The notes: generated from the letters alone by a model not told the origin. Shown: positions 32,060-61,282, counted from the first letter of the stretch. The stretch: DNA of 64,000 bases from Candidatus Nanosyncoccus sp. (GCA_045638045.1 JAZUAP010000007.1:5907-69906), one strand, 5' to 3'. Numbers and translations: made by a program.

Positions 32060-32216
32060 AAAATATAATTTTGCTGGAGTGTCATTTGACAATCAAAAAA
32101 GCCCCAATTTACAGGGGTCTTTTGTTATTTTTGGAGTGTTCCTAGTCAGCGAAAACGTTGTCTGGAATGACGCTTTTTTGCTATTTTTTCAGCTGTTCGC
32201 AGATGGTGTGCATATA

Positions 32217-32302: not shown

Positions 32303-32366
32303 TAGTGATCTTTACACACACTAACGACGATACGATACTATGATTCTAAACGGTGAAATCATTATC

Positions 32367-33064: not shown

Positions 33065-33069
33065 GTAGA

Positions 33070-36045
33070 CTAACGCGCGACACAACGTACGGCGAAGCCC
33101 ACATCACGGGTGGCTCCCCAACCTAGGCCGCCTGTTTGATCTACGTCGAAATAAAGCATGACGGCATGGTCCGCTGTATCCGTATCTAAAGAGGAGGTCC
33201 AATATTCTCCTAACGATCCTACATATTGGCCAAACGATTCGCCACCCCATCGTCCGCCATAGGTAAAATATACCGGAGATTTTTGAATATTGCCACTTGT
33301 AGTAGCAGTATATCTTCCGTTGATTAAGTTATAGTATGATTTTGAACCGTCACGCGTCGGTAAGCGCCATCCAGCCGGGCAAATTGATTGGTTAACATCT
33401 TGGGTACCAGCAGTGTAACTACTGGAGTCGTTCATAGCTACAGCCGCGGTCCAGTTGTAGTAATTGCCTAAATGATAATGACCGCTAGTGCAGGTCTGCG
33501 TCATATTGTCAAGTGTACCGTTCCAACTAGTATTAAGGTTTCCGTTCCAACATTTATTGCCGGGGTCGTAAGATTCTGGAGTGGTAGTTGACCATATCCA
33601 TGTTTTATTACTCGTAGCGTAAGTAGAACGATCTGGAGTCCAGTTGGCAGGTATGTCCGTATTGGCGGGGGTGAGGGTGGTAGAAGTACTGAGATCTAGA
33701 TCCAGATTCTGAGTCATCCAGATGTTACCGTCTGCTTGCTTAGCTACCAAATATTCTTTGCCATCACGCTTATCTACTACTATAATCTGTTCGCCAACAG
33801 TAGTTAATTCATCTTTCCATTGGTTTACGTCTTGCATATATTTCGGAGGATCCGGGTTGACTATCCACGGGTCCGTGGCGGTACCAGTACCACTCACGGC
33901 AGCAGTTCCAGAGGTGAGGGAAATGGACGGGCGCACCCCATACGTGTAGACGACGATGCCGTAGCCGCCGCTGAGGTCGCCGTTCGGGCCCAGGTAGAAG
34001 CCGTTCGCATAACCGCCCGAGAGGCGGGAGTAAGGGGACAGCAACCAAAAGTAAGTACCGGAATACAGGAAACTGTTAGCATGGTAAGGAGTAGTGGATG
34101 CGCTGTAGCCTGAACCAGCAAAGGCAGCTTCATCAGCAGTGAGAAGAGCGGCTGGATATTTAAGCTGATTGGATACTCCAGTACTTCCTGCTACATAACG
34201 GTAGAGGTCTACAGTGCTACGATCTATTTGACTATATTTATTGCCACAGGTGAGGGATGGGGCTTGGGCGGCATTTGCGTTTCGTGGATCTGCGCCAAAG
34301 TAGTATTCTTGTTGGCCTGAGGTGCCGTAGGTGGAGGCAATGGTGGTAGATTCGCTAAGTGGGGTGGTCCAACTTCTGGATGTATTCATAGTACGGTCAT
34401 TACAATATCCTGCACTAGCTTCTAGTTTAGAAGTGTAGCTAGTCATATTGTTAGCATACCAAGTGTCTTCAATGTATGTTTTAATAGTTGAGCGAGTATT
34501 ATTAGCTCCTGGGTTAGAGTTAGAACCAAAGATTTGAGCAATAGTACCAGACTGGGATGTATTAGTAGCATAGGTGGAGTTATGGGTGTAGCCTACACGG
34601 ACGATTTGGCGGTAGTCAGAGGAAGTACCGTTGAAGGCTGAAGTAGTGACTTGGGCGGCAGTGGTTGCGTTGGCGCAAGTACTGCCAGTCCATTTGCCTT
34701 GGTAGATCATCTTTACTCCACCAGAGCCGGTAGTACGAATAATACGCCAGCAGGTATCTGAAGTATCTTTTCCATTGCCAGTAGTGTCCAATAGAACAGT
34801 ATTAGGCCAGGCGGCATTATCACCGTTGCTACCATATGAACCAGTGGTATTATCTAGAATGCCACGGTAGTAGTAGATTTTGCTGGTGTTTGCGACATCT
34901 GATGCAGTGCCAAAGACTGAGCTATTGTATTCATAGACGCCGGAGTTACTGGTAGTAATGGCAGCGCGAAGCTGAGCTAAAGTTTGGGTGCCTTTGCTCA
35001 TACTAGCTACCGTATTGTAAAGATTAATCCCTGCTACTTCCCACATCGCATAGATGGTAAGTGGGTTACTGGATTGCGTTTGATCTAGAGTCCAAGTAAG
35101 ATTAGTTCCACCACCATCAGGATTATAGGTAGTACCAGAGCATGTGCCTCCATCAGTTGTTTGAGTGGTACACCAACCTTTAAAGTTAAAGCCATCTCTT
35201 ACTGGAACTGTACTACTTAAATTCACTATTTCATCAAAGGTAGGTTGATTTACTACATTTGTAGGCATATTAGTAACAGTGTCTTGTGTATTCTGGTTAT
35301 AGGTAATGGAATAATAAATTGGATTTGCTACGGCAGTGATAATAAAGGTATTAGCATATTTACCTGGAGATGTAGAATTATTAATTCTGGTACCTAGTGC
35401 TATATTGTATTCGTTTGCTGTAGCATTTGCTGAAGTAGTTTTATCAATAATGAATTGGTTAGTAGCACTACTTGGTCCTGGGAAGTAAAGGTTAGATGAG
35501 GTGTTATCTATCACCACATCATTATTGGTATCATAATACTTACTTGGCCTGAATCCCCAAGTATTATTTAAGTTGTTAGATGAAGCATATGTAAGATCAT
35601 TATAGTTAGTTCCTGATACTCCTGCAGAAATAGTATGGGATGGGATAGTTTTAGAACTATCAGAAGCATTAACTAAAGCATTTTCTCCTTCAGTGCTGGC
35701 TTTAATGCCGAGTGTATAGCCTGTACCATTATTAGTAGAGACGCTGATATTATTAGCAGTAGTGTCCGATGAAGCAAAGGTTCCTGCACTATCAAGGGAT
35801 GAGATGTTGAGGCTTAGTTTGTCTGTTACACTGAGAGTAAGGGTGGAAGAAGTAGCATAGGCATCACTTCCTTTCAAAATGAAAAAGCCATCACCTATAG
35901 TAACCAATCCTAGTATTATCATTAATGTAATCGAATACATTACTCTTTTCTTGATTTTAGCATCAAGAATACTAAATACTCTAACCTCTGACAAAAACGA
36001 GTATTTATTTGTAGATTGATTCTTTAAACTATTATTACCTTCCAC
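33070..36045 (-). CDS. Secreted 991-aa surface protein: family N-terminal module + Listeria-Bacteroides-type repeat + 'YYYRG/CWRIIR' module + 'WLLSP...GVRPSISL' module + C-terminal FISUMP domain
   Basis: GTG start with a TGtTATAAT promoter (36083..36075 on minus). Signal-peptide-like KIKKRVMYSITLMIILGLVTIG...SDAYA. FISUMP landmarks at about 33073..33790: VDKRDGKEYLVAKQADGNIWMTQNL, YYNWTAAV, ICPAGWRLPT, YWTSSL, GFAVRCVAR. The exact start codon is uncertain. Confidence 0.85.
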   Translation of the reverse strand: MEGNNSLKNQSTNKYSFLSEVRVFSILDAKIKKRVMYSITLMIILGLVTIGDGFFILKGSDAYATSSTLTLSVTDKLSLNISSLDSAGTFASSDTTANNISVSTNNGTGYTLGIKASTEGENALVNASDSSKTIPSHTISAGVSGTNYNDLTYASSNNLNNTWGFRPSKYYDTNNDVVIDNTSSNLYFPGPSSATNQFIIDKTTSANATANEYNIALGTRINNSTSPGKYANTFIITAVANPIYYSITYNQNTQDTVTNMPTNVVNQPTFDEIVNLSSTVPVRDGFNFKGWCTTQTTDGGTCSGTTYNPDGGGTNLTWTLDQTQSSNPLTIYAMWEVAGINLYNTVASMSKGTQTLAQLRAAITTSNSGVYEYNSSVFGTASDVANTSKIYYYRGILDNTTGSYGSNGDNAAWPNTVLLDTTGNGKDTSDTCWRIIRTTGSGGVKMIYQGKWTGSTCANATTAAQVTTSAFNGTSSDYRQIVRVGYTHNSTYATNTSQSGTIAQIFGSNSNPGANNTRSTIKTYIEDTWYANNMTSYTSKLEASAGYCNDRTMNTSRSWTTPLSESTTIASTYGTSGQQEYYFGADPRNANAAQAPSLTCGNKYSQIDRSTVDLYRYVAGSTGVSNQLKYPAALLTADEAAFAGSGYSASTTPYHANSFLYSGTYFWLLSPYSRLSGGYANGFYLGPNGDLSGGYGIVVYTYGVRPSISLTSGTAAVSGTGTATDPWIVNPDPPKYMQDVNQWKDELTTVGEQIIVVDKRDGKEYLVAKQADGNIWMTQNLDLDLSTSTTLTPANTDIPANWTPDRSTYATSNKTWIWSTTTPESYDPGNKCWNGNLNTSWNGTLDNMTQTCTSGHYHLGNYYNWTAAVAMNDSSSYTAGTQDVNQSICPAGWRLPTRDGSKSYYNLINGRYTATTSGNIQKSPVYFTYGGRWGGESFGQYVGSLGEYWTSSLDTDTADHAVMLYFDVDQTGGLGWGATRDVGFAVRCVAR

Positions 36046-36123
36046 TCTCTATTCTTGTTAAGCTTATTGTATTAATTATAACATGCCGATTAATTTTTTA
36101 GAAGTTTTATTTTTGTAAAAACC

Positions 36124-36762
36124 CTACGATCCCAGCAAGCACCTCAGCGAGTAGCCGGCGTCGCGAAAATCGCTACCGGCAGGATACACATTGCTAGAAC
36201 GGACGGCCAGGAGGTACATATAGTTACCATTGTAGTAAGTAGAAGACCAGAAGACGCTGTTGGAGCCCTGACTGAACGCCGAGCCATCGTCGAAGCCGCC
36301 AGAGAAAGGCGTAGAAAGAGCGTTTTTGAAGCTTGTGGCATCACTACTATAGGCTGCGTAAAGGGCTTGGTATTCGCCGGAGGAGTTACTCGTTGGCATA
36401 CGCCAACCAGCTGGGCAAAGGTCATATTGAGCGTTACCAATTCCTTCATATCGATCGTAACAGTAACTTCCGGTACTAGCTGCACAGTAGTTATAATAGA
36501 CACCGATTTTACCAGAACCTGAACCATAGCTTATGGTAGTAGTGTTTTTATAGTCTGCATTGGCTTTGGCTTGGTTGTAGACATTATTAGTATCTCCCTG
36601 AGCCCATGCAACGAAGCCACTACTAGCATATCGGGCATCGGCAGAGCGGTTACCGGATTTGAGAGAAGTGAGGGAAGCGGCATTTACGTGAGTATTAGAA
36701 GTAGTTAGGCCGTTTAGAATAACACACCTTTTTTCTTCCTGAAGTAATTCTAGTTTCTGCAT
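36124..36762 (-). CDS. FISUMP-domain fragment with no signal peptide and no N-terminal beta-hairpin; possible pseudogene or silent cassette
   Basis: 212 aa. Begins at the MQ that marks the FISUMP domain boundary in the paralogues but lacks the D.RDG..Y.V.K.....WM..NL segment. Retains YYNYCAAS, LCPAGWRMPT, FWSSTY, GYSLRCLLG. No SD and no convincing promoter. Confidence 0.5.
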   Translation of the reverse strand: MQKLELLQEEKRCVILNGLTTSNTHVNAASLTSLKSGNRSADARYASSGFVAWAQGDTNNVYNQAKANADYKNTTTISYGSGSGKIGVYYNYCAASTGSYCYDRYEGIGNAQYDLCPAGWRMPTSNSSGEYQALYAAYSSDATSFKNALSTPFSGGFDDGSAFSQGSNSVFWSSTYYNGNYMYLLAVRSSNVYPAGSDFRDAGYSLRCLLGS

Positions 36763-37952: not shown

Positions 37953-38951
37953 ATGAAAAGAACACACAAAAAAATATTTGGTCTTTTCGGACTTATATTG
38001 GTGGCTGCAGTCACGATTTTTGCAGCCTTCTTGCCGAGTCCCAAGACCTTAGCTGCAGATTCAGGCAGCTTTACTGATGAAATATCAGTAAGAGTTACAG
38101 GCTCTACTCCATCAATAGATGTGGACGGAATTGAGCAAGATTCTGTTTCGCCAGATGGTAGACGCACTGCAACAATCCCATATAGTGGGGTAGAATCAAT
38201 TGTAGTTAAAATAATATATACGGATGAGGATGGAAATGAATACGTAACTACATTGCCAACAAAGTACGTCGATTATGCAACTGGAACAGCAACTTTAACG
38301 TTTGACACCTTAACTGGTGATTATGATTTGGATGGTGTAACTGGTGGTATGGTTGCTTACGGCTATGGTGATTATGAAATTGAAGTGGAAGGATATATTG
38401 GAGATTCACTAGTCGCTGGTCCAATCCATGTTGAATTCGAAACTAACCCGATTGGTGATGGTACGCAGATCGTGAAAGAAGAAGGTGCGGGCGATGACGG
38501 TTCAGACAAGTATTATTTAGATGTGGATTATGATAACAACGGAGAGGTGCCTGGTGGAGCTGACGTAGACCGAATAAATATTAGAATTTTTAACGAGAGT
38601 GGGGAAGAAGTAACCGCACCATTAACTATTGTGGCACCAGATACGAGAGTTGAATTGCCGTTTGCAGAATGGGGAGAAGGAAAGTATAGAATCGAGATCA
38701 CGGCTTACGATGGAAGTGGAAACGTAATTTACAAATCACCTGCATATGTGTTTGAATATAACTATTCTCCTGGTGGCGACGAACCTCTCCCAGTACCTGG
38801 CACCGGTGATACAGGTGGAATAATGGGCAACTTGAACATCTCGAAGACGGACTACATTATTACAGGACTTATAATCTTTGGAATTATTGGAGTTAGCGCT
38901 GCAGTGTTTATCTCGAAGCACGACAAAAAAGCAGGGAACAGAAGAAAATAA
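37953..38951 (+). CDS. Sortase-substrate-like surface protein (LPVPGTG sorting signal)
   Basis: 332 aa. Signal peptide ...PKTLA/ADS. Beta-rich Ig-like body. L-P-V-P-G-T-G at 38787..38807, then hydrophobic YIITGLIIFGIIGVSAAVFI and the KHDKKAGNRRK tail. Confidence 0.65.
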   Translation: MKRTHKKIFGLFGLILVAAVTIFAAFLPSPKTLAADSGSFTDEISVRVTGSTPSIDVDGIEQDSVSPDGRRTATIPYSGVESIVVKIIYTDEDGNEYVTTLPTKYVDYATGTATLTFDTLTGDYDLDGVTGGMVAYGYGDYEIEVEGYIGDSLVAGPIHVEFETNPIGDGTQIVKEEGAGDDGSDKYYLDVDYDNNGEVPGGADVDRINIRIFNESGEEVTAPLTIVAPDTRVELPFAEWGEGKYRIEITAYDGSGNVIYKSPAYVFEYNYSPGGDEPLPVPGTGDTGGIMGNLNISKTDYIITGLIIFGIIGVSAAVFISKHDKKAGNRRK

Positions 38952-47395: not shown

Positions 47396-50290
47396 TCAAT
47401 TATTACTCTGTTCTTTTACGATGCAGCGAATAGCGAAGGCGTCCCATTTATTCCAAGAGCCAGCAGGAGTAGCACCAGAAGCCGTGATACCGAGACGGAA
47501 GGCGTTAACTTGACCGTTTGGAGTGGCACTCCACCACCGACCAAATGAATTACGACCACCTGGTTGATTGTGATTATAATCGCCAGAATAAATGAAGTTA
47601 CTCGGGTATTTTCTATAATTCGTATCTACTTTACTAACAGAAGGACTACCTAATGCATTATCAAGAGCGGCATATTCTCCGTTGGTACCGCCAGTGGCAA
47701 GACGCCAACCTTTCGGACAGATGTCGCCCGCTACATTACCGGTTTGTACATCGAAAGTACCGTTACCGGCCGAAGCAGTGAACCAGTTATACATAATACC
47801 ATAACTATACCATGATCTATTGGGGGCGGTGCTGTCATATGAGGGGGTAAAACTGCGATTGATAGCATTGGAATTAAAGTGTATGGCGTCGGTGCAACCA
47901 TCGTTGTCTTGATTACATAATACATTCTCACTGCTAGACTGTGAGGCAGCGGTAATAAATGCAGAAGTAGGATTATTAGTATTGCTACTATCGAAAGCCG
48001 TAGTGGATGGATCGAGGCGAAGATTTTCAAGCATCCAGCAATGATTATCGGCGAGTTTGGCGACAGCATAAGTGTCGTTGTTACGAATATCCTTCAAAGC
48101 AATGACGGAGCTTAGATTAGCACAATCTTGAGCGTCAAATGTTTGCATGGTCTTAGTAGTGTGCTCAGGTATCCAGACTGCATAGAAAGGTATTTCATTG
48201 GTGACAGGATCGGCTCTAGCGAGAACTGAAGCATTGATGTCGATAGTTTCGTTCGGTCCGTAAATTGTAACAGATTGATTATTGGCGAGTTTGTCGGCGG
48301 CATCAGCATCAAGGCTCCAGCCTGCAAAGCCATAGTTCGCACGAGAATAATTGGATGCAATAAGCCGGTGTTTTCCTGCAACGACATCATGTTCGGTGGC
48401 AACACTCATCGAACCGGCATCGGCATTATTGCCGTCATACACGATAGTGTAGACCTCACGCCATATAGCATAAAGATTAAGAGTGTCGCCATCTACAAGG
48501 CCTTCACGATCGGCGGCACCAGCCACCATGCCACCCGGAGTCACAGCAACGCCGCTGCCATCTGGTTGTGAGTTCCAAGCAACGAATGCTGAATGCTCTT
48601 TAGTAAATGCATTATCGGCAGCGAGAGCCGTACCAAAATCAACGTCAGTTTCATCTGACATGGTGCCAGTTCCGCCGTTGGCATCATAATGAATATTGCC
48701 TCTGAAATGATAGCCTGGATTATATAAACAACGCACGGTTTGACCACGATTTTTACTGGTATTGTTGGAATTCATAAATACTGTACTTAATCTTATCCAA
48801 AGATTGTTGGTTCGTTTTGCATCTATAGTATTTAGCGTAGCATGACTGCTAGATATTGCGCGGTTTGAAGCGGAAGCTTTTTGCTCGCCTCCTAGGACGT
48901 AGTTAAGTGGATATTCGCGCCATTTTAATGAGGAAGCAATCCCTTCAGGGGTATCTGGGTCGTTGTTTTTACCGTTTCCGCCCATCGCTATATCTAGGAT
49001 TGCCAAATCTCCAACAAAGCCAGCACCGGCTGGTAGCCTCCAGTTGGCTGGGCAAATGTCACCATTGACAGATGCACCCCCTACATCTAGTTCAAAAGTC
49101 CCATTGCCAGCAGTGGCAGTGTACCAGTTGTAATAGTTGCCATATGAATACCAGGATTTTCTAGCACCATTATCATTATAGGAAGGGTCTAGATTTCGAT
49201 TGGTATTATCAGTGTTATGATAGATGCTGTTGATACAAGCGCTGGTATCTCCCTGACAAAAGTTAGTACTGGATGCCGGATGCCCACTATTTATAGCCTG
49301 AATAAATGAATTAGTTGGTCTATTGGTGTCAAAACTACTAATGTTAAGGTTTGAGTCAGAGAGATCGAGCCGTAAGTTTTCCATCATCCAACATTGGCCA
49401 TCGGCGAGTTTGGCGACGGCATAAGTGTTGCCATCACGAATATCAGTTAAGGCAATGACAGCATTCTGCGCCATATTGCCACAGCCACTCCAAGACTGCA
49501 AATCTCCGCTTGATGGAATCCACTTGGCGTATAATTGCAATCCTTCAGTTGAGAGGTCGCCAGGATTTATCGTCTGGTTAGGACCATAGGTAGTACCGGT
49601 ACCATCTATGGATGTATTCCAGCCTGCAAAACCATAGCCCGGTCTAGAGAAGTTTGGTGCAATTAAAACCGTATCGGTGCCGGAAGTTGCGTCTTGATCT
49701 GGCATCTCACCAACTACATCATCGCCGTTACTATAGTAACAAATTTTGTCAGGTAGACATGGATCTAATTTGGCGACTGCCTGGATGGTGACTGAGCCGG
49801 TGTAAGTACCTTGGGATTGGCTTAGTGGAACTAAGGCTCCGAATGTCAAATCATATTCGTCAGTACCAGCAGTGCTCGTTTCAAATAAGCGTTTAGAAGA
49901 GCCCGGCGCTGGAACTGGCAAATAGTTAGCTCCATCATCCGTACTGTAACCATAGCCGTAACCAGTAGAACCCGCCGGCAGGCTCGAAGAACCACTCGGC
50001 AAGGTGAAGGTGGGAATTGTAATAGTAGGATCTGACTGATGAACTAAGGCATTAGTTGATCCAGTCGGAGCTAGGTTTACATAATAGCCGGCCGTACTCG
50101 TGGATGTCACTGTTACTGTTTGTGACGTAGAAGCAAATACTCCTGGGGTCAAGCTGAGCTGTACTGAACTAGGATCAATATCTACAGTTATACTTTCGAC
50201 AGCAAAAACCGCCTGACTACTAAATATCAGGTTGAGGGCGAGTATCGTGATTGTTCTAAATAATATTTTTGATACACGACCCCTTAACAC
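47396..50290 (-). CDS. Secreted 964-aa surface protein: family N-terminal module, three Listeria-Bacteroides-type repeats and two FISUMP domains
   Basis: GTG start 7 nt after GGAGG, with a TGtTATAAT promoter (50328..50320 on minus). Signal peptide ...SQAVFA/VES. FISUMP-1 at about 48725..49470: DIRDGNTYAVAKLADGQCWMMENL, YYNWYTAT, ICPANWRLP, GQTVRCLY. FISUMP-2 at about 47415..48115: DIRNNDTYAVAKLADNHCWMLENL, MYNWFTAS, ICPKGWRLAT, AFAIRCIV. Repeats end in LYAKW, LYAIW, FYAVW. Confidence 0.88.
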   Translation of the reverse strand: MLRGRVSKILFRTITILALNLIFSSQAVFAVESITVDIDPSSVQLSLTPGVFASTSQTVTVTSTSTAGYYVNLAPTGSTNALVHQSDPTITIPTFTLPSGSSSLPAGSTGYGYGYSTDDGANYLPVPAPGSSKRLFETSTAGTDEYDLTFGALVPLSQSQGTYTGSVTIQAVAKLDPCLPDKICYYSNGDDVVGEMPDQDATSGTDTVLIAPNFSRPGYGFAGWNTSIDGTGTTYGPNQTINPGDLSTEGLQLYAKWIPSSGDLQSWSGCGNMAQNAVIALTDIRDGNTYAVAKLADGQCWMMENLRLDLSDSNLNISSFDTNRPTNSFIQAINSGHPASSTNFCQGDTSACINSIYHNTDNTNRNLDPSYNDNGARKSWYSYGNYYNWYTATAGNGTFELDVGGASVNGDICPANWRLPAGAGFVGDLAILDIAMGGNGKNNDPDTPEGIASSLKWREYPLNYVLGGEQKASASNRAISSSHATLNTIDAKRTNNLWIRLSTVFMNSNNTSKNRGQTVRCLYNPGYHFRGNIHYDANGGTGTMSDETDVDFGTALAADNAFTKEHSAFVAWNSQPDGSGVAVTPGGMVAGAADREGLVDGDTLNLYAIWREVYTIVYDGNNADAGSMSVATEHDVVAGKHRLIASNYSRANYGFAGWSLDADAADKLANNQSVTIYGPNETIDINASVLARADPVTNEIPFYAVWIPEHTTKTMQTFDAQDCANLSSVIALKDIRNNDTYAVAKLADNHCWMLENLRLDPSTTAFDSSNTNNPTSAFITAASQSSSENVLCNQDNDGCTDAIHFNSNAINRSFTPSYDSTAPNRSWYSYGIMYNWFTASAGNGTFDVQTGNVAGDICPKGWRLATGGTNGEYAALDNALGSPSVSKVDTNYRKYPSNFIYSGDYNHNQPGGRNSFGRWWSATPNGQVNAFRLGITASGATPAGSWNKWDAFAIRCIVKEQSNN

Positions 50291-50468
50291 GGGTCATCCT
50301 CCACAACTCGCATGTTCTAATTATAACACAAACACTATAAAATGGTTATTTTTTTATTATTTTTTTGAAAAACTTGTGCAAAAGTTTTTTTAATTGCAAA
50401 AAAGCATTTACGGAATGAAAATTTTTATGTATAATGGTTATATTAAAAGGAGTGTGTGAAGGTTATAA

Positions 50469-53400
50469 ATGAACCGAATAAAGTGGAGGATGTTACTATT
50501 TAGACATTTCAGGCGACGACTACGCTTGTGGATGTTTGCACCGATTTTAATCGTAGGGCTGTTTTTGGTTTTTGGCAGTCAGCCAGTGGGGGCTATCGCC
50601 AAAAAAAGTACACTTACTATTTCAGTCAGTAATCCAGGGATGGCATTTTCAGTAATTGGCTCAAGTGGTGGTAATTTTGGCAAGTCTGGTGTTAATACTG
50701 TGACCGCTACAACTGATAACTTTACTGGCTATCAGCTCAAAATTGCTTCAGTCGATTCTCAAAGTTTTTTGAATGATGATGATGGCGAAATCGAGCCAAT
50801 TGAAAGCGAGATTAACGAGACCACTTTTCAAAATAGTGCACTATACAATAATAAATGGGGATATGTACCGAGCCAATTTATAACTACGATTAACGAAACA
50901 AATACCGTTATTCAAAATACAAATTATTTGCCGGCACCGTCGTTTGAGGGTGATCTTTTGGCTATGACAAACTCTGCAAACGTCACGGCGGATACTTACA
51001 CTCTTTCGTTTGGCGCAAGGGTTGATGCGACTTTGCCGACCGGTAGTTATGAATATACTTATGTTCTGCAAATGGTGGGAAATGATGTAGTTTATAATGT
51101 AACTTTTGATGAAAACACTGAAGAGACAGTGACGGGAATGCCTAATCCTAACCCGCAACCATTGGTAATGCCTGGTGGTACGCCAGCAGAACAGAGCTAC
51201 GTCGCGTTAAGCGATGCGGTGCCAGTTATGACAAGTGGAGACGAACTAACCTTTGGTGGATGGTGCGACGTTCCTACGACTGTCGACCCTACAACAGAAA
51301 ATTACGAATGCTCTGGTACTACTTACGCAGCTGGTGCCGATTACCCGATTGACCAAACGGCAGATGGAACCAATATTACTCTATATGCTATTTGGTTGAA
51401 TGATCCATTCCCGACAGTATTTTCGCATATGGGAGCTTGTATATTTAATGGTAAAACTGGCGGAAATATTACTGGTTCAGAGTGTACAGAATATGCCGAT
51501 AAACAATATATTGATACTGGCATAGCGCTTTATAACGATACAAATTATAATAAAGATTACCAAGTGCATTTTAAGATTGATAGTTATGATCCAAATAATC
51601 AATCAGGTGAACAACAGCAAACTTTCTTTAACGATAAACTATCCTCTAAGGCTGGAAGCAAAAAGGCTCCTGGCATCATGGTGAGAAGAGAAGGTTCTAC
51701 TTCAAGGATTGAAATTAATTCCAGATTAAATGATGTCCCGTCGAATTATTCGACCACCGCCAGTAGTATATCAACAGTTGATCTTTATCGAATAAATCAC
51801 AAGATTTATTACAGTATCAATAGTGGTCCACTTGTGATGCTCCAAGATTTAACTGACTCTTCTGAAACATTTGGCATTAATGCTTGGTTTGGTGCGTATC
51901 CTTACGATGAGGATTGTACAGTTAATTGTACTAAAGCTAAGAGGTTTATTGATGCCACAATGAGCGAAATGTATATTAAACTCGGTGATTTTGACGATTC
52001 GGAACTTTATGAGATTACTTTTGATGCGAATGGCGGGACAGCCTCATCGAGCCAATACTATATTGTAGATGGAAATGCCTTGGGTAATTTACCAACAGCG
52101 ACTAGGAGCAACTGGTACTTCCTCGGTTGGTTCACGGGGCAAAGTACTGGAACCCAAATTACGAAGGATACCGTACCGACTGGAACTACGACTTATTGGG
52201 CACATTGGGTGAAAACCGTAACACAAGCAATCATTACTAACCCAGATATCACTGTGCCAAGAGGTAGTACTGAAACTATTAATATATCAAATTCAAATGA
52301 GGTTGAGCCTTATACATTTATGTCGACTAATCCAACAATTGCAACAGTTGATAGCACAACTGGCGTAGTGACTGGCGTTGCTGCAGGTTCAACTACAATA
52401 GTAATGACTGGTACTTTATCACAAGAAACGAGAACAATTGATGTAACCGTAGCTGGTAGTTCTGTCACCTTGACGTTTGATGCTGATGATGGGGCGGCAG
52501 TTGCACCGGTCACTATTGGACAAGGAGCTACTCTAGGTTATATTCCGGCTTCGATTAAACAAGGTTATATTTTAGACGGTTGGTATACGGGTACTGGCGG
52601 AACGGGTCAAAAGCTTCTTACGACTACCCAGATTAATGATGATACTACTTATCATGCTAATTGGGTGGCTGGCTCCTTTGTTTGTGAAAAAGCCAAAACT
52701 TTGCATACCGAGACTTGTAGTAGAAGCTCTAATGGTTGTAATTTAGCGGGTTATGGCTCTGGCGAAATTACTTATGGACAATTAATTCAAACCAGCACGA
52801 TGAATTATGGAGACGCTTATAATTGTGACATTAATAATGATAATAATTTTGATGAAACAAATGAAAGATTCTACTATATCGGAGTAAATCCCGATAATGA
52901 TAACGCATCTTTGATTTATTATAAGAGCTTAGTTAATAGTGATAGAAATTACAGTACAGCAATTACGGATCTTCCTACTTCATCAACTTGGACTAATGAT
53001 AAGCTAGCGGTGTTTGATGGAACGAGAGTGGGTAGATTTATGAAACGTTCAGAAGTTCAGAGGGTTTGCGGATCAGTTCAAGAGTTTCCAACCGAGCTTG
53101 GCGTAGATGGGAACTGTGTGTACCTAATGGAGCAATCTAGCTTCTATGATACTTCTCTAAGGGAAGGTATTTGGCTGGAAGCTGAGGGGGACCCTAGCGA
53201 GTCTGTTAACAGATATAGGATTCAGACCGCATCTCTAAAGGTCACCAATAAAACTAGTGGTAACACTCCGCGACCAGTGATTGAACTACCGATTGGATAT
53301 CTTGAAAGAGGTGGCTTTACACCGACACCGGCAACGACATACGATCTAACCTTTGCCCCACATAACGAAACGAGTTCAAGTGTCGTTACTATCGATGCGG

Positions 53401-56400
53401 GCGACCCGATTGGTGCTGACATGCCGAATGATCCAACCTACCTCAACCATCTTTTCCAAGGTTGGTTCACGGAGGAAACTGGCGGAACCTTAGTAACTAG
53501 TCAAACTACGCCAACTGGTGATGCGACTTACCATGCACAGTGGAAAGGCACAGTAGTACTTGCTAATATAACCAACACCAATATAAACATAGTTAAGGAT
53601 GCGACTGAGACGATAAATGTTACCAACGCGAATGAAATTGAAGGCTACAGTTTTATTTCAAATAATACATCCGTAGCGACAGTGGATAGTTCAGGTGTAG
53701 TGACGGGCGTAGGGCAAGGTACAACGACGATTACGATGGAAGGCGCGGTGTCGCACGCTACGAGAACTATCAATGTAACTGTGACAACTCCGGTAATTAA
53801 TACTTACGATTTGACATTCGAACCACATAATGGTGGTACTGCCACAATTATAACTATCGACGCTGGTGACGCAATTGGTACTTTGCCTGAGGATCCAATT
53901 TATACGGATCATTTGTTCCAAGGTTGGTATACGGCGATTAGTGGAGGAGATAAGCTAGATGGAAGTGAAAGACCAGTGGGTGATACAACCTATCATGCGC
54001 AATGGAAGCTACCGGTTACTGAAGCAATTATTTATCCTGAAATAAATGTTGTTCCAGAAGATGGGACGGAGCAATTGGTAGTATCAAACGCTAGCGAATT
54101 AGAAGAATATAGATTTAGTTCAAGTGATACAAGTATATTAGAGGTTGATGCAATTACCGGTGAACTCTTTGGGGCATCTGTTGGCGATGCGGTTATTACT
54201 TTGACTGGTAAACAATCTCATTTAACGAAAACTTTGAATATCACAGTAGCATCTGGCATTACTTCAACCAATGTTTGTATTTTGGCAGATTCACTGCACC
54301 AGGGAACCATTAAAGGCACCTCAACTGTGGTAGATTATGGACAAATAGCTTCGTCTCCAACGCCACAAATAGGTGATGCATATGACTGTGATATAGATGA
54401 TAATAGTGTTTATAATGCTTCAACTGAAAGATTCTATTATATTGGAAGAACAAGCGCTGATCCAAATGCAAATGCTTTACTTGTGGCCTTTAGTAGTTTT
54501 GATGATAACGAAGGTGATGAAAATGGTTGGCATATTCCAACAGAAACGAAAAAGGGCTCTTATCTATATGATACCGCTCTTGCAACTTTGCCGACTACTA
54601 CAAGATGGAAGAATCCTGATTTGGTTGAGCAAACAGTAGCGCAAGACGTTACTCGTGCAGCAAGATTCTTGACTTATAGTGAGGCTACTACGATTTGTTC
54701 TGGTACGTCTAATCTTGATTCTAACTGTAAATACCTACTTGAAAATACAGCTTATGATGATAAAGGTAGAACGGGTATTTGGCTGATGCAAGACGGCAGT
54801 ACATTATATAGGATTCAATCCGCCAATAAGAACATTGCTGGTGTGCAATCTGATAGTACAAATGGTGCACGCCCAGTAATTGAAGTGCCTTATAATTTAA
54901 TTGAAAAATATGAAATACCTTCAGTTTCTTACACCGTGAACTTTAATTCAATGGGCGGTTCTAGTGTCGATCCAGTAACAGTACAGGGTGGCACGGCTCT
55001 TGGCGAAAATTATCCAGCGACCGATCCAACAAAGGCTAACTATGAATTCTTTGGTTGGTATTCTGATTCGGGTTTATCGAATGAAGTTACTCCTGATACA
55101 ATCATCACTGGGGATTCGACCTTCTACGCCAAGTGGATTTATAATGGCTCCAATTTCCCGATTGTTTGGATGGAGAAAAATGCCTGTATATTTAATGGTA
55201 GTAATCCGATTGACGGTGAGTATTGCGGCAAGAAGGATCCGAATAATCCTAAGAGCTACATCGATACGGGTATTGCCCTTTATAATAGCACTAATTATGA
55301 TACGGATTATGAAATTGGCTTTAAGATATTATCGTTTGCACCTACGAGCACTCAAGAAACACTGATGAACGAAAAACTTGAATATAGTACTGAAAACTAT
55401 CCTGGAATCATGATGAGAAGAGCTAGTACTACTTCTAGTATTGAGCTTATTCAAAAGATTAATAATGTTGCGTCACCTACCGCTACAGCAACTATTGGCG
55501 CCCTAAATGACGTTCGAATAGTAAGAGAAGGTGGGGTTGTCAAGTACTCCTTTAACGGCGATGAGTTGACTACTTTGCAAGATTTGAATCAGATTACGAA
55601 GCAAACTTTTGATACGACGACTTGGTTTGGTGCTTCAGCGGCTTATAATTCATCAACTGGATTGTATTCGCCACAACGACAGATACACGGTGTTATGACT
55701 GACATGTATATTAAAATGGGTACTTATGAGGAGAGTAATGAGCGCACTGTAAGATTTAATGCAAATGGCGGAGAAACGAGCGAAGAATATAGATACTTGA
55801 TAAGCGGTAGTCAATTGGGAGCTTTACCGACAGCAACAAGAACTGGTAGTTTCACCTTCCTTGGTTGGTATACAGAAAAGACTGGTGGAACCTTAGCCGA
55901 TCCAACCGACCTCATCACTTCTAATACGACTTATTGGGCACATTGGCAATACCATTCATCAACCGAGATTATTCCGTTTAACGTAGAAAACTCAGCCGTG
56001 CGCGGTTACCAGGAGCAGATTAGTCAGTGGCTACCTGATATTACAACTTTCAACAAAGATGCTACGGATATTAATAAATCTAACTGGGGAATACCTGAAG
56101 CTGATTTCTGGCTCGCTTTGAAAAATAACTACGAAGCTAATGATTGTTACTCGCCGGCATACGCTGCAAGTGAATCTGCAATCGACTTTGATAGTGGAAC
56201 GGTGGATTGCTCTAAACCGAATGTCTATGATACTGGTGTAACTGAAGCGCTTGATGTATACGAGTATGACACCGTCAATCACACTCATGGCAGTACTCCG
56301 GTGGCTTGGGCGAAAGCAGATGAAGGTGTTATACACAACATGATTCCAGGACAAACCTACTATTGGGAGCAGCATGATGATGCGAATGTTTATGGCTACG

Positions 56401-57119
56401 TTGAGGCAACAGCCGATAATGGTCGACGGTTCATCGACTCAGGCGAAGTGAGAAATGTACGTGACCTTGGTGGTTTGCCAGTAGACGCTAACGGCGATGG
56501 TACAATAGATGGCTCATTAAAATACGAAAAACTGTTCCGCGGTGAGAGGTTATGGAAGCATGGAAACACGGTTAATGTTGAAGAAATCGCCAACCTTGGT
56601 GTAACTAAGGAAATTGACCTACGCGAAAGTGGTGAAGGTACAGATGACGACAAATTGTCCGATCTTACCGGTATATCTTCTGATTATGAGCTTAAGACTA
56701 TCAAACACTATGAATCTTATTATGGTTCATCATACTATACTGCAGCCCGAAGTGCAGTAACTCAAGTGATGGACGATGTTATCGCCGGAAAAAATATATT
56801 CTTCCATTGCCGAGTTGGGGCAGATCGAACTGGCACTTTAGCATATATTTTGGAAGGTTTACTAGGCGTGCCAAACGAGGAGCGTTATCAGGAATATGAA
56901 TTAACCTCGTTGTCTGGCATGAACGACAGAACTAGATATTACAAGCAGAAAACTGCATCAAGTAATAAAAAGTTCGTATACATGATGGGCTTCTTACTTA
57001 CAACTCAAGACGTCTATGAATGGTACATGGCTGGTAGTAGTGATACGGAAACCGTCCATCCGGATGCTGACAGAATCCAAGCCTTTAGACAAGCAATGAT
57101 TGAACCTAATTCGCCTTAA
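50469..57119 (+). CDS. Giant 2216-aa secreted multidomain protein ending in a Cys-X5-Arg phosphatase domain
   Basis: TGtATAAT (50430..50435) plus SD. Signal/anchor MFAPILIVGLFLVFGSQPVGA. Approximate modules:
- Family N-terminal module: 50601..51084.
- Listeria-Bacteroides repeats: 51087, 52008..52209, 52464..52664, 53340..53543, 53805..54005, 54930..55136, 55742..55946.
- Big_2-like domains: 52231..52452, 53569..53785, 54027..54248.
- Duplicated ~200-aa module X: 51400..52000 and 55143..55721.
- Duplicated ~210-aa module Y: 52671..53310 and 54262..54908.
- Phosphatase domain at the C-terminus. Confidence 0.9.
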   Translation: MNRIKWRMLLFRHFRRRLRLWMFAPILIVGLFLVFGSQPVGAIAKKSTLTISVSNPGMAFSVIGSSGGNFGKSGVNTVTATTDNFTGYQLKIASVDSQSFLNDDDGEIEPIESEINETTFQNSALYNNKWGYVPSQFITTINETNTVIQNTNYLPAPSFEGDLLAMTNSANVTADTYTLSFGARVDATLPTGSYEYTYVLQMVGNDVVYNVTFDENTEETVTGMPNPNPQPLVMPGGTPAEQSYVALSDAVPVMTSGDELTFGGWCDVPTTVDPTTENYECSGTTYAAGADYPIDQTADGTNITLYAIWLNDPFPTVFSHMGACIFNGKTGGNITGSECTEYADKQYIDTGIALYNDTNYNKDYQVHFKIDSYDPNNQSGEQQQTFFNDKLSSKAGSKKAPGIMVRREGSTSRIEINSRLNDVPSNYSTTASSISTVDLYRINHKIYYSINSGPLVMLQDLTDSSETFGINAWFGAYPYDEDCTVNCTKAKRFIDATMSEMYIKLGDFDDSELYEITFDANGGTASSSQYYIVDGNALGNLPTATRSNWYFLGWFTGQSTGTQITKDTVPTGTTTYWAHWVKTVTQAIITNPDITVPRGSTETINISNSNEVEPYTFMSTNPTIATVDSTTGVVTGVAAGSTTIVMTGTLSQETRTIDVTVAGSSVTLTFDADDGAAVAPVTIGQGATLGYIPASIKQGYILDGWYTGTGGTGQKLLTTTQINDDTTYHANWVAGSFVCEKAKTLHTETCSRSSNGCNLAGYGSGEITYGQLIQTSTMNYGDAYNCDINNDNNFDETNERFYYIGVNPDNDNASLIYYKSLVNSDRNYSTAITDLPTSSTWTNDKLAVFDGTRVGRFMKRSEVQRVCGSVQEFPTELGVDGNCVYLMEQSSFYDTSLREGIWLEAEGDPSESVNRYRIQTASLKVTNKTSGNTPRPVIELPIGYLERGGFTPTPATTYDLTFAPHNETSSSVVTIDAGDPIGADMPNDPTYLNHLFQGWFTEETGGTLVTSQTTPTGDATYHAQWKGTVVLANITNTNINIVKDATETINVTNANEIEGYSFISNNTSVATVDSSGVVTGVGQGTTTITMEGAVSHATRTINVTVTTPVINTYDLTFEPHNGGTATIITIDAGDAIGTLPEDPIYTDHLFQGWYTAISGGDKLDGSERPVGDTTYHAQWKLPVTEAIIYPEINVVPEDGTEQLVVSNASELEEYRFSSSDTSILEVDAITGELFGASVGDAVITLTGKQSHLTKTLNITVASGITSTNVCILADSLHQGTIKGTSTVVDYGQIASSPTPQIGDAYDCDIDDNSVYNASTERFYYIGRTSADPNANALLVAFSSFDDNEGDENGWHIPTETKKGSYLYDTALATLPTTTRWKNPDLVEQTVAQDVTRAARFLTYSEATTICSGTSNLDSNCKYLLENTAYDDKGRTGIWLMQDGSTLYRIQSANKNIAGVQSDSTNGARPVIEVPYNLIEKYEIPSVSYTVNFNSMGGSSVDPVTVQGGTALGENYPATDPTKANYEFFGWYSDSGLSNEVTPDTIITGDSTFYAKWIYNGSNFPIVWMEKNACIFNGSNPIDGEYCGKKDPNNPKSYIDTGIALYNSTNYDTDYEIGFKILSFAPTSTQETLMNEKLEYSTENYPGIMMRRASTTSSIELIQKINNVASPTATATIGALNDVRIVREGGVVKYSFNGDELTTLQDLNQITKQTFDTTTWFGASAAYNSSTGLYSPQRQIHGVMTDMYIKMGTYEESNERTVRFNANGGETSEEYRYLISGSQLGALPTATRTGSFTFLGWYTEKTGGTLADPTDLITSNTTYWAHWQYHSSTEIIPFNVENSAVRGYQEQISQWLPDITTFNKDATDINKSNWGIPEADFWLALKNNYEANDCYSPAYAASESAIDFDSGTVDCSKPNVYDTGVTEALDVYEYDTVNHTHGSTPVAWAKADEGVIHNMIPGQTYYWEQHDDANVYGYVEATADNGRRFIDSGEVRNVRDLGGLPVDANGDGTIDGSLKYEKLFRGERLWKHGNTVNVEEIANLGVTKEIDLRESGEGTDDDKLSDLTGISSDYELKTIKHYESYYGSSYYTAARSAVTQVMDDVIAGKNIFFHCRVGADRTGTLAYILEGLLGVPNEERYQEYELTSLSGMNDRTRYYKQKTASSNKKFVYMMGFLLTTQDVYEWYMAGSSDTETVHPDADRIQAFRQAMIEPNSP
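56454..57116 (+). other. C-terminal protein-tyrosine/dual-specificity-type phosphatase domain (Y_phosphatase3-like)
   Basis: NVRDLGGLPV, KEIDLRESGE, and the P-loop FFHCRVGADRTGTLAYIL (HCRVGADRTG = 56805..56834). Confidence 0.75.
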
Positions 57120-59192: not shown

Positions 59193-60113
59193 ATGAGCGC
59201 GGTGGGCATTCAAGAAATCGAGCAAATCAATAATCGCGTTAAGTTATGTGATTTTTTGGTAGTAGCACAACTATTCTTGAAGGATAATTTTTTACTTGAG
59301 AGAGAGCTTACGTTTGATGACATCAAACCGAGATTGCTTGGACATTGGGGAACTTGCCACGGCATCAATCTAGCATACGCGAATTTAAAGTGTTATTTTA
59401 GGGATGACCCTAATTTTAGCTTTGTGTTAGGTCCTGGTCATGGATTCCCGGCCTTAAATGCTAATTTATGGTTAGATGAAGAACTACTAAAAGTTAATGA
59501 AAAAGCAAGCCTTGATAGAGCCGGACTAGAATATCTTTGCAAGAGTTTTTCTTGGCCGGATGGTTTTCCGAGCCACGCGAGTCCATACACGCCTGGTGTT
59601 ATTACAGAGGGCGGAGAACTGGGCTATGCTTTAGCTAATGCGTATGGAGTTACTTTAGGACACCCTGAAAAAACTATCGCTGTGATGATTGGCGATGGTG
59701 AACTCGAAACCGCTACTGCACTTGACTCTTTGAATTTGAGAAATCTTTTAACTGGATCAAAAAATGGGCGGATTTTACCGATTTTGCATTTAAATGGTTA
59801 TAAAATATCAGCACCAACTTTATATGCACGTAAATCTGAGCGTGAATTAAATGAGCTAATTCGTGGATTTGGTTTTACGCCGGTATGGATTCATGGTGAT
59901 GATTCGGAAGATTTTCAATCTGCTCTAGAAAAAGAAGTTGATTCACCGTTTTATATACTGGAAACTGAAAAAGGAAAGGGCGGACCGACAAAATACCAAG
60001 ATGCACACCAGATTCCTTTGAAAAACCCAAAGACCGACGAAAATGAGTTGCATGAATTAGAAGAATGGCTACGAAGTTATAATGCAAATGAACTATTGGA
60101 GGGAATAATATGA
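59193..60113 (+). CDS. xfp: Phosphoketolase, N-terminal (TPP/PP-domain) part
   Basis: 306 aa. IKPRLLGHWGTCHG, GPGHGFPA, EGGELGYAL, GDGELETA, ILPILHLNGYKISAPT. TGaTATAAT (59181..59186) lies 6 nt from the ATG. Confidence 0.85.
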   Translation: MSAVGIQEIEQINNRVKLCDFLVVAQLFLKDNFLLERELTFDDIKPRLLGHWGTCHGINLAYANLKCYFRDDPNFSFVLGPGHGFPALNANLWLDEELLKVNEKASLDRAGLEYLCKSFSWPDGFPSHASPYTPGVITEGGELGYALANAYGVTLGHPEKTIAVMIGDGELETATALDSLNLRNLLTGSKNGRILPILHLNGYKISAPTLYARKSERELNELIRGFGFTPVWIHGDDSEDFQSALEKEVDSPFYILETEKGKGGPTKYQDAHQIPLKNPKTDENELHELEEWLRSYNANELLEGII

Positions 60114-61282
60114 TTGAGCGTGTGAAAAACCCAGGCGAAGAATTATTCTCACCAGCCAAAAAAATCGGGGAGCTTTTGACTGAAGAATTCAAGAAAAACC
60201 CTTCATTTAATTTCTTCTCACCAGATGAAACAACCTCTAATAAATTTGATCAGATATTTGAAGTGGAAAAAAGAGCTTGGGGCGATATGCCGACAAAAGC
60301 TTGGGATTTGCCGGAATCTTCTAACGGACGCGTAGTGGAAATGTTATCTGAAAACGTGTTGTTTTCAGTAATGACCGGACATCTAATGAATGGTGAACCT
60401 GCTATGATGGGAAGCTATGAGGCGTTTTTCCCAGTAGTTACTTCACAGGTTTTGCAACAAATGAAATTTTTCAAGCAGCTCAAGAATGTTGAATGGCGTA
60501 AAGCTTTACCAGCAGTGAACTTACTTTCGACTTCGACTTGTTGGAGGCAGGATCACAATGGGTTTACGCATCAATCACCGGCTTTGATATCGACTTTGTT
60601 GTCGGTGCCATCTAATCTTGCTAACTGTATTTTCCCGATTGATGATGTTTCCGCTGAAGAGGCATACAAATTTATGATGGTTTCGGAAAATGTTGTAAAT
60701 CTTACAACATTTGATAAAAATGACCGGCCTCGTTATATTGATTCACACCATGCTAGTTTCCAATTCGCAAATGGTGGTGCGTCAGTTTTTGAATTTGCTT
60801 CGGACAGTAATCCCGACATCATATTAGCCGGATGTGGCGACATCGTTTCGCACGAAGTTCTAGAAGCAATGAAAATAATTCGTGAAGATATCCCAGAAGT
60901 AAAAATGCGGTTTGTGGGGATAAATGCGTTATCTTATCGCTCAATTGGCACCACTAACATGAAGCTGACTAAGGGGAGATTTGAGGAATTGTTTACATCA
61001 GATAAGCCAATCATCGCTAATTTTCATGGTTACCCAGAAACACTTGAAAATATTTTGGAAAATTATACCTATAAAAACAGACTTCGCGTGCACGGCTTCA
61101 ACGAGGAAGGCTCCACTACTACACCATTTGAAATGCTCAGACGGAATGCTGCTTCACGCTTTGATATTGCAATTGACGTTGCGATGCTGATGGGGCGGGA
61201 TGATTTAATTCGTAAATACCGAGAATTGCTAGAACAAAACCATCAACATGCTATACAATTCGGTGAAGATTTGATAAAATAG
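60110..61282 (+). CDS. xfp: Phosphoketolase, middle + C-terminal part
   Basis: 390 aa. FSPDETTSNKF, YEAFF, WRQDHNGFTHQSP, FHGYPE, EEGSTTTPFEM. ATGA overlap with the preceding ORF. Confidence 0.85.
   Translation: MIERVKNPGEELFSPAKKIGELLTEEFKKNPSFNFFSPDETTSNKFDQIFEVEKRAWGDMPTKAWDLPESSNGRVVEMLSENVLFSVMTGHLMNGEPAMMGSYEAFFPVVTSQVLQQMKFFKQLKNVEWRKALPAVNLLSTSTCWRQDHNGFTHQSPALISTLLSVPSNLANCIFPIDDVSAEEAYKFMMVSENVVNLTTFDKNDRPRYIDSHHASFQFANGGASVFEFASDSNPDIILAGCGDIVSHEVLEAMKIIREDIPEVKMRFVGINALSYRSIGTTNMKLTKGRFEELFTSDKPIIANFHGYPETLENILENYTYKNRLRVHGFNEEGSTTTPFEMLRRNAASRFDIAIDVAMLMGRDDLIRKYRELLEQNHQHAIQFGEDLIK

Follow-up and report, generated by a model that had tools for sequence, protein, structure and literature searches.

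In a 64,000-nucleotide stretch of DNA from Candidatus Nanosyncoccus sp. (GCA_045638045.1, JAZUAP010000007.1:5907-69906; the window from here on), a probable Saccharibacteria-type epibiont, the longest open reading frame (ORF) lies at 50469..57119 on the plus strand and encodes 2216 amino acids followed by a stop codon, exactly as claimed in an earlier note on this DNA. This giant protein ends in a cysteine phosphatase domain, and we favour, with moderate confidence, the reading that it is a lectin-targeted phosphomonoesterase acting from outside on the envelope of another bacterium. From the N- to the C-terminus, the domain order is signal peptide, N-terminal module (NT), X, F, B, F, Y, F, B, F, B, Y, F, X, F, LINK and PTP, where F is Flg_new, B is Big_2, X and Y are two modules present in two copies each, LINK is a pre-phosphatase domain and PTP is the catalytic domain with a protein tyrosine phosphatase (PTP) fold. 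As computed, the mature protein is about 237 kDa with an isoelectric point of about 4.4.

The catalytic domain (residues 1987-2214; 56427..57110, +) was delimited by Pfam, an AlphaFold2 (AF2) model and Foldseek. When the whole protein was scanned, Y_phosphatase3 (PF13350) matched residues 1993-2167 with 72.8 bits over a cutoff of 22.2, and residues 1985-2216 taken alone scored 79.6 bits (E 4.5e-22). The Y_phosphatase3-type motifs described in the earlier note were all found by Pfam and motif position: NVRDLGG at residue 1996, IDLRE at 2049 and FFHCRVGADRTG at 2111, with the Cys-X5-Arg P-loop as C2114-RVGAD-R2120 in the stretch from H2113 to G2122 (HCRVGADRTG; 56805..56834, +). The same note had proposed profile searches and structure prediction for this region, and a PTP fold was indeed modelled. 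The AF2 model of residues 1836-2216 had a mean predicted local distance difference test score (pLDDT) of 90.1 and a predicted template modelling score (pTM) of 0.92; since the pTM is high, LINK and the phosphatase are predicted to form one rigid unit. Foldseek against the PDB gave a Clostridioides difficile PTP (8dhi/8dhj, E 2e-8) and PtpB (1ywf/2oz5, E 2e-7), followed by PFA-DSP1, TpbA, Siw14 and DUSPs, with a probability of 1.00 for PTPs, dual-specificity phosphatases (DSPs) and PFA-DSPs. The family profile run against PDB sequences likewise retrieved 8dhi (7e-9) and PtpB 1ywf (3e-6). Neither WPD nor KNRY occurs anywhere in the protein, there is no Q-loop, and a Pfam scan of residues 1985-2216 at E-values up to 10 returned no classical PTP family and no PTP-like phytase family. 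Judged from sequence and model, the catalytic domain is a genuine Y_phosphatase3/PTP-fold member with intact catalytic residues, and the phosphatase looks active.

Searches with residues 1836-2216 found 280 relatives, the nearest of which come from named Candidatus Saccharibacteria or are unlabelled metagenome fragments. The P-loop [H/N]CxxGxDR[T/A/S]G was present in 141 of 145 retrieved domain-bearing proteins, with C, G, D and R kept in 141/141. Three of the other four differ only in the last residue (HCAVGADRTA), and P0032, the remaining one, aligns with the domain profile over its first 60 positions only. In an alignment of 25 sequences, the P-loop H, C, G, D, R, T and G were invariant. 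Conservation of the Cys, the Arg and a general-acid Asp had been named as a check on the phosphatase; it held for Cys, Arg and the P-loop Asp (141/145) and failed at the position equivalent to the Asp82 loop of MptpB, which varies. By homology, Cys2114 is inferred to be the nucleophile, Arg2120 the phosphate binder and Asp2119 the catalytic acid. In the atypical lipid phosphatases (ALPs), mutation of this Asp lowers activity to <10% in Lmo1800 and LM1, and the residue is essential in MptpB (PMC3091653). The protein has 21 cysteines, mostly inside the extracellular modules and placed in a manner consistent with disulphides; the sole Cys of the catalytic domain is the nucleophile.

Position 5 of the P-loop, Ala2118 in the window protein, is A, T, S, R or C and never K in the 141 relatives. 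The diagnostic ALP signature, HCXXGKDR[TA]G, has a Lys here (Beresford et al. 2010, PMC3091653), which is tied to phosphoinositide binding (PMC3091653). Because this Lys is replaced throughout the clade, we class the domain neither with the ALPs nor with the enzymes likely to act on phosphoinositides; its loss from the P-loop argues against efficient phosphoinositide use. The tyrosine, dual-specificity or phosphoinositide specificity suggested earlier was not supported.

Relatives outside the Saccharibacteria-type proteins share 30-36% identity and form three groups. The first comprises proteins of about 610 aa with lipobox-like leaders (...A/F-S-C-S; judged by eye), the named ones from Alistipes and Bacteroidaceae. 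The second consists of signal-peptide proteins, some with dockerin (P0049, P0102). Members of the third, 500-660 aa long, have no signal peptide and start with N-termini like '..IADAIREKTGG..YKIAQM..'. The genomic context was read for six members of this third group (P0105, P0111, P0095, P0100, P0080 and P0081). The gene for P0105 (L002, 10001-11881) has terminase, P22-type portal, Prp and capsid upstream and Amidase_2 and holin after it. P0111 (L005, 10001-11899) is preceded by capsid, tail-tube, tape measure and Prophage_tail and followed by amidase and holin. Upstream of P0095 (L011, 10001-11629) come portal and capsid, then a protein of 799 aa where the tape measure would be expected, then proteins with faint Prophage_tail and BppU_N matches. 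The contig of P0100 (L009, 10001-11488) is that of a phage and also carries TerL, portal and connector genes, and P0080 (L010, 10001-11761) adjoins a GH25 lysozyme. The Y_phosphatase3 proteins in these phage or prophage modules (L002, L005, L011, L009, L010) are 495-632 aa long; in L005 and L011 the gene sits between Tal/BppU_N and the lysis genes. Phage tail or structural modules thus carry an Ala-type phosphatase in at least four loci (L002, L005, L009, L011), and this arrangement points to a virion tail-associated cysteine phosphatase. P0081 and its paralogue (L004, 2131-3972 and 7716-9551) adjoin LicD (9584-10393) and NAGPA (10535-13972), a phosphodiester glycosidase protein of 1659 aa, in a non-phage locus. 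The L004 neighbourhood hints at a pathway on sugar-phosphate-containing surface polymers. A Bacteroidales-type lipoprotein relative (L006) had only housekeeping neighbours.

The window domain aligns with P0111 over its whole catalytic part (32% identity over 219 aa, BLASTP E 3e-23). Against predicted viral structures, the top three Foldseek matches were phage proteins of about 600 aa named 'tyrosine phosphatase family', from a myovirus, a siphovirus and an Ackermannviridae phage (E 8e-19 to 4e-14, query-normalised TM score 0.51-0.61), which beat the best PDB entries (E 2e-8, 0.35-0.38). PHROGs had no family for the phosphatase domain, an alignment-based pattern scan of IMG/VR gave 71 pattern matches of which none was confirmed, and tblastn against INPHARED phages gave only 5 weak matches (29% identity) to unannotated fragments. 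We propose an Ala-type Y_phosphatase3 clade with the P-loop HCxxG(A/T/S)DRTG, nearer in sequence to the phage, lipoprotein and dockerin members than to the ALPs and delimited by E-values, P-loop signatures and a handful of genomic contexts. Because every other member that could be placed is extracytoplasmic or virion-associated, the clade would consist of envelope-directed 'outside-in' phosphatases; we read it as distinct from intracellular phosphotyrosine (pTyr) or phosphoinositide signalling enzymes.

All sequence features of export are present, in agreement with the signal peptide claimed before. The predicted Sec-type signal peptide (residues 1-42; 50469..50594, +) has an Arg-rich n-region, a 15-residue hydrophobic core MFAPILIVGLFLVFG and V-G-A preceding I43, and in 25 relatives the NT module starts directly behind an AxA-type site. 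Shine-Dalgarno-like AAGGAG and GAAGG at 50448-50463 precede the ATG at 50469. A promoter-like, sigma-70-like site, TTTACG-17-TATAAT (50407..50435, +; consensus match only), sits in a 178-bp intergenic region common to the divergently transcribed neighbour gene. The NT core (residues 43-208; 50595..51092, +) was defined by homology to a paralogue and relatives and has the conserved motifs ..TDNFTGY.., ..NKWGY.PSQ.. and ..NYLPAPS... It bears out the claim of a family N-terminal module, as residues 1-286 match the window ORF 33070-36045 (-) with 31% identity (E 4e-30). For the core itself, no Pfam, NCBIfam or PDB sequence or profile relative was found; PDB sequence and profile searches with NT and Y gave nothing beyond a lone tropomodulin match at E 0.09, which is noise.

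The scaffold between NT and LINK is built from repeats and from X and Y. Pfam detected Flg_new (PF09479) in six stretches (172.7 bits, E 1.6e-51), at residues 514-581 (52008..52211), 666-733 (52464..52667), 958-1026 (53340..53546), 1113-1180 (53805..54008), 1488-1557 (54930..55139) and 1759-1827 (55743..55949), all on the plus strand; TIGR02543, the Listeria-Bacteroides repeat, matched with 48 bits. A seventh, degenerate Flg_new-like repeat (YNVTF...GGWC...YAIW) at residues 209-310 (51093..51398, +) belongs to the N-terminal module, and the equivalent region of the paralogue matches Flg_new at 1e-4. The seven '[YF]..A.W' repeat ends lie at 306, 576, 728, 1021, 1175, 1552 and 1822. The earlier count of seven Listeria-Bacteroides-type repeats is therefore right with the qualification that six are clear and one is degenerate. 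Three Big_2 domains (PF02368), as described before, were found above threshold (54.5 bits, cutoff 22.8, E 1.1e-14) at residues 585-651 (52221..52421, +), 1030-1095 (53556..53753, +) and 1184-1250 (54018..54218, +).

Self-comparison by BLAST of fragments and the positions of the quoted motifs confirmed two copies each of X and Y. X1 (residues 312-511; 51402..52001, +) and X2 (1561-1756; 55149..55736, +) share about 38% identity (E 2e-35), with ACIFNG at 323 and 1572 and MYIK at 501 and 1746. Y1 (734-947; 52668..53309, +) and Y2 (1262-1480; 54252..54908, +) share about 33% (E 5e-24), with ERFYYIG at 799 and 1320 and RPVIE at 935 and 1468. When the isolated X, Y, NT and LINK segments were compared with Pfam and NCBIfam, no significant family was returned. 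X, for which a structure search had been suggested and which matches no Pfam family, was predicted by a structure model (pLDDT 88) to form a beta jelly-roll. Foldseek related the X1 model to the botulinum neurotoxin receptor-binding region, the laminin-G domains of agrin, laminin, neurexin and Gas6, PL7 alginate lyases and galectin-type lectins, with 62 PDB matches at E <= 1e-3 (best E about 2e-5, TM scores 0.4-0.5). On this model X is a laminin-G/concanavalin A-like jelly-roll, a statement made at fold level only. A word-indexed search, with 7 matches for X and 18 for Y, had made both modules appear very rare. For X this was a sensitivity artefact: when the profile search was made exhaustive, it retrieved 679 cluster representatives, 285 with E <= 1e-30. 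They are mainly large proteins rich in Flg_new and Big_2, frequently with 2-3 copies of X.

The 18 homologues of Y from the word-indexed search are all of 280-365 aa and mostly with an N-terminal hydrophobic segment. The N-terminal half of Y is Cys-rich and has a D-x-D-x-N-G-D-G-type loop (D-x-D-x-N/D). Its C-terminal half appears, from sequence, to be remotely related to DUF6273 (PF19789): 8 of 20 aligned members of the Y family match the C-terminal half of that model, and two of these, with 25.7 and 25.9, exceed the gathering score of 23.5. Y1 and Y2 of the window themselves had no DUF6273 match in the Pfam scan. X (P0124-P0127) and Y (P0130, P0135) also occur as the sole globular domain of proteins of about 250-360 aa, which have leaders like 'MKLNNKG[FY]A...'. 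P0135, of the Y family, has a prepilin N_methyl motif at 3.7e-9. From these leaders and the prepilin motif, X and Y may therefore also sit on type IV pilin-like proteins.

The mirrored order X..Y..Y..X noted before is real as an order of labels; there is no inversion, and the order has no demonstrated significance. All copies are direct and collinear, with [X-Flg_new] present twice and [F-B-(F)-Y] paired with [F-B-Y]. Among 25 giants ending in LINK and PTP, the order was XYX in 7, XYYX in 6, XX in 5 and another one in 7. Since the copies are direct and their order varies among relatives, we rejected the mirror as an inverted duplication or a functional symmetry. The duplication of X would be old, because X1 is nearer to the X1 of an orthologue (50-62%) than to X2 (about 38%).

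This orthologue, in a metagenome-assembled genome of Candidatus Nanosyncoccus, has 1848 aa, is 40-65% identical along its length and has the order X-Y-X, with Y2 absent. It lies in another neighbourhood, with rubrerythrin upstream and RmuC downstream. Besides it, 23 of 147 further X-containing cluster representatives end in LINK and PTP. The architecture is conserved in many Saccharibacteria-type genomes, and the gene varies among relatives in copy, domain number and genomic position. LINK (residues 1836-1984; 55974..56420, +), defined by the AF2 model and relatives, consists of helices and a beta-hairpin (PGQTYYWE..D..VYGYV) with a Cys1893/Cys1914 pair; it has no Pfam or PDB sequence relatives and nearly always co-occurs with the phosphatase. 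Several 'short' relatives visibly come from the 3' ends of giant genes arranged X, Flg_new, LINK, PTP. Homologues of 246-427 aa that seemed to stand alone were rejected as genuine small proteins, since many are fragments on short contigs, and P0014 corresponds to the second, 3' half of a giant orthologue gene that is split. In L007 (GCA_052829825.1), an orthologue is split within LINK into ORFs of 1591 aa (4091-8866) and 246 aa (8950-9690), in a rubrerythrin-to-RmuC neighbourhood as in L001; this is a frameshifted pseudogene or an assembly error.

Only 2 residues follow the phosphatase in the window protein, and neither terminus shows an LPXTG-type or other recognisable anchor; the protein might leave the cell or be retained through its NT module. 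The topology was counted in 61 LINK-PTP relatives with a complete PTP at the C-terminal end. Like the window protein, 44 of them end at the phosphatase, 15 continue for 93-130 residues and 2 have long tails without a clear helix. The 15 tails consist of a low-complexity spacer, a Y-x-x-P-L-G-V-S/T motif (clear in 14), a hydrophobic helix some 20-30 residues behind PLGV, and a charged tail. The tailed relatives listed are P0147, P0152, P0153, P0156, P0160, P0163, P0164, P0224, P0175, P0009, P0011, P0017, P0020 and P0022. With a transmembrane helix following directly, the phosphatase of the 15 tailed proteins would be the domain nearest to the membrane and not the tip. A display of the phosphatase 'at the tip', as the earlier note had it, was thus not borne out. 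The PLGV tail, absent from the window protein, resembles a signal, so far undescribed, by which Saccharibacteria-type bacteria would anchor or sort proteins at the C-terminus.

Taken together, we suggest the following sequence of events. The protein would be exported by Sec and cleaved by signal peptidase after Ala42. X and Y may then attach to a neighbouring (host) bacterium through glycans or other structures on its surface, as their folds suggest, and the phosphatase would hydrolyse a phosphomonoester on, or released from, the host envelope. For this last step, the conservation of the residues comes from the present analysis and their roles from mutagenesis of MptpB, Lmo1800 and LM1. Because of the LicD/NAGPA neighbourhood and an analogy to glucan phosphatases, phosphorylated wall glycopolymers are our leading, and weak, guess for the substrate.

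Several points weigh against this reading. The substrate is entirely inferred. PTP-fold enzymes are monoesterases and most envelope phosphate is in diesters, so a partner enzyme would be needed, and none was recognised among the window-encoded proteins. An extracellular Cys nucleophile is sensitive to oxidation and tolerable only in an anoxic habitat. The equivalent of the MptpB Asp82 loop, aligned by eye, varies, with 'HYESYY' here and 'HYNFDY' in many relatives. As no wall or membrane anchor is recognisable, the window protein may simply be released, and the membrane-anchored phosphatase of 15 of the 61 relatives equally fits action at the producer's own surface.

The main rival is a promiscuous ecto-phosphatase for nutrient scavenging, which would free phosphate, or turn nucleosides, inositol or sugars into forms that an auxotrophic epibiont can import; the lectins would only keep the enzyme close to a food source. 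Characterised members of the family are promiscuous: MptpB and Lmo1800 act on para-nitrophenyl phosphate, pTyr, phosphoinositides and, weakly, 5'-AMP and IMP (PMC3091653), and the substrates of Pho16B, which has Y_phosphatase3 and a predicted signal peptide, include InsP6, ATP and sugar phosphates (PMC6409689). The dockerin- and lipoprotein-linked relatives of gut and rumen bacteria would also suit extracellular nutrient processing. However, a phage virion gains nothing from phosphate, yet the clade is present in phage tail modules, and a lectin scaffold of about 2000 residues, conserved across many lineages, is costly for a general phosphatase. We consider scavenging rather unlikely.

The anchored relatives bear on a second alternative, in which the phosphatase processes a wall or membrane component of the epibiont itself, such as a lipid-linked precursor or its own glycopolymer, and the lectins bind its own surface layer. 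About one quarter of the relatives have a transmembrane anchor some 100 residues past the phosphatase, which would keep the enzyme near the membrane of the producer; most relatives, the window protein included, do not have it. Phage tail homologues by definition act on a foreign cell, and variation in copy, domain number and position is the usual pattern for interaction proteins rather than for housekeeping enzymes of the wall. Such a self-directed role seems improbable to us.

A silent or slow PTP domain might instead bind a phosphorylated ligand, like a substrate-trapping pseudophosphatase, which would make the whole protein a plain adhesin. The variable general-acid loop would fit, as would the fact that the domain always occurs among binding modules. 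Pseudophosphatases usually lose Cys, Asp or Arg, however, and here Cys, P-loop Asp and Arg are invariant in all 141 motif-bearing relatives, so that we hold this receptor to be distinctly improbable. Delivery into a bacterial or mammalian host cell in the manner of PtpB/LipA, with action on pTyr proteins or phosphoinositides, is highly improbable: the domain shares its Pfam family and fold with PtpB, a secreted virulence factor (PMC3091653), but its identity, 32% with phage tail proteins, falls to 12-17% with PtpB and the C. difficile PTP. It also has Ala in place of the phosphoinositide-binding Lys (never Lys in 141 relatives) and terminates a 237-kDa multidomain protein, with a membrane anchor after it in some relatives, and no translocation signal, cleavage site or linked secretion system was seen among the annotated neighbours. 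Of the effector proposed in the earlier note, action on the host surface gains support of its own from the relatives in phage tail and receptor-binding modules, and delivery into the host found no support.

Returning to a lectin-targeted enzyme directed at another bacterium's envelope, we tentatively raise a broader possibility for the clade as a whole. It may be an unrecognised 'outside-in' class of envelope-attacking enzymes, shared by phage tails and Saccharibacteria giants, that dephosphorylates a wall glycopolymer or lipid-linked component of Gram-positive bacteria and, by modifying or destroying a receptor, enables or ends attachment. If true, this would be the first known case of a cysteine phosphatase serving as an envelope enzyme on a virion or an epibiont, and a molecular tool common to viral and bacterial parasites of bacteria.

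The window encodes further surface proteins. The divergently transcribed neighbour (47396..50290, -) is an exported protein of 964 aa with Flg_new repeats and Fib_succ_major. The NT-module paralogue (33070..36045, -; 991 aa, 31% identity over 286 aa) has no phosphatase, and a 212-aa protein (36124-36762, -) matches Fib_succ_major weakly. These three minus-strand genes encode Fib_succ_major/DUF1566-style ends (...AIRCIV.., ...AVRCVAR, ...SLRCLLGS), and the three exported proteins together with the phosphatase giant form a sizeable lectin-type surface repertoire in 64 kb. A transposon-related helix-turn-helix protein (PF20310; 32393-32896, -) is encoded between a tRNA-Leu (31969-32059) and the surface-protein cluster, and 31969-36762 may be a region in which surface-protein genes vary or are mobile. 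Scanned with Rfam and for tRNAs, the window yielded two tRNA-Leu genes only. Tandem genes at 36878-37876 and 37953-38951 (+) encode proteins of 332 aa with a signal peptide, a C-terminal hydrophobic helix and a basic tail, which look like C-terminally anchored surface proteins. A phosphoketolase is split into overlapping ORFs at 59193-60113 (+; 306 aa, XFP_N) and 60110-61282 (+; 390 aa, XFP and XFP_C); a sequencing error, a frameshift or decay into a pseudogene could explain the split.

How the ultrasmall Saccharibacteria recognise and exploit their bacterial hosts is largely obscure; a part in it has so far been assigned to type IV pili and to some glycan-binding proteins of the envelope. The protein family described here is a concrete enzymatic candidate at the epibiont-host interface, with a well-folded catalytic unit of about 380 residues and defined Cys, Asp and Arg. 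Its link to phages offers, in adsorption, an independent system for finding the substrate, and suggests that agents attacking bacteria from outside turn recurrently to envelope dephosphorylation. Among the 'tyrosine-protein phosphatase' annotations in gut metagenomes, the family also picks out a sub-clade that is probably unrelated to tyrosine phosphorylation. In the literature searched, we found no description of the fusion of LINK and phosphatase to a lectin-bearing giant scaffold, of the Ala-type clade or of its presence in phage tail modules.

Among characterised phosphatases, the ALPs (M. tuberculosis PtpB, Listeria Lmo1800/LipA and Leishmania LM1) share the Pfam family and the fold. Common features are NxRDxGG and LFR in the N-terminal part of the domain, a P-loop H-C-x-x-G-x-D-R-T-G in which the catalytic Asp immediately precedes the Arg, and the lack of WPD, KNRY and a Q-loop. 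Members without Cys or Asp were excluded as probably inactive by Beresford et al. (PMC3091653); the window protein has the catalytic Asp, but with Ala for Lys at position 5 it departs from the ALP signature. ALPs are small free proteins, whereas the window domain is fused to LINK and a surface scaffold of about 1800 residues, and the mycobacterial insertions are absent from it. PtpB and the C. difficile PTP are only about 12-17% identical to it in structural alignments. The latter (8dhi/8dhj) is the best solved-structure match by both profile (7e-9) and Foldseek (2e-8); it is a stand-alone protein of 249 aa with the canonical HCTAGKDRTG, and the TM score with the window domain is only 0.35-0.38 (query) or 0.54-0.59 (target). 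No paper on 8DHI/8DHJ was found in the literature searched.

Pho16B and the PTP-like phytases (S. ruminantium PhyA), which serve in nutrient release, are, as proposed here, extracellular Cys-based phosphatases with a signal peptide; Pho16B differs in keeping HCxxGKDR and in being a 38-kDa single-domain enzyme. The glucan phosphatases laforin, SEX4 and LSF2, in which a PTP/DSP fold with carbohydrate-binding modules dephosphorylates a polymer, are a functional analogy only: they gave weak Foldseek matches (4rkk, 4kyq; E about 2e-3), belong to another PTP subfamily and have no sequence relationship. They are intracellular and use CBM20 or CBM48, in contrast to the laminin-G-like and DUF6273-like modules found here. 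The glycan-binding envelope proteins SEML1_0890, SEML1_0891 and SEML1_0315 of Southlakia epibionticum, for which targeting of host glycans has been proposed, are essential for epibiotic growth (PMC10633639). They are alike in being large and exported and in having lectin-type or dockerin domains, a likeness drawn by description only, but no phosphatase domain has been reported for them. The closest relatives of the catalytic unit are the proteins of tailed phages and prophages (A0A8S5V632, A0A8S5T7U1 and A0A8S5QN55; P0105, P0111, P0095 and P0100). They share the Ala-type P-loop (HCAAGADRTG and similar) and are placed to meet a bacterial surface from outside, but differ in their length of about 500-650 aa, in the absence of a signal peptide and of X, Y, Flg_new and Big_2 modules, in a tail-fibre-like N-terminus and in another domain C-terminal of the phosphatase.

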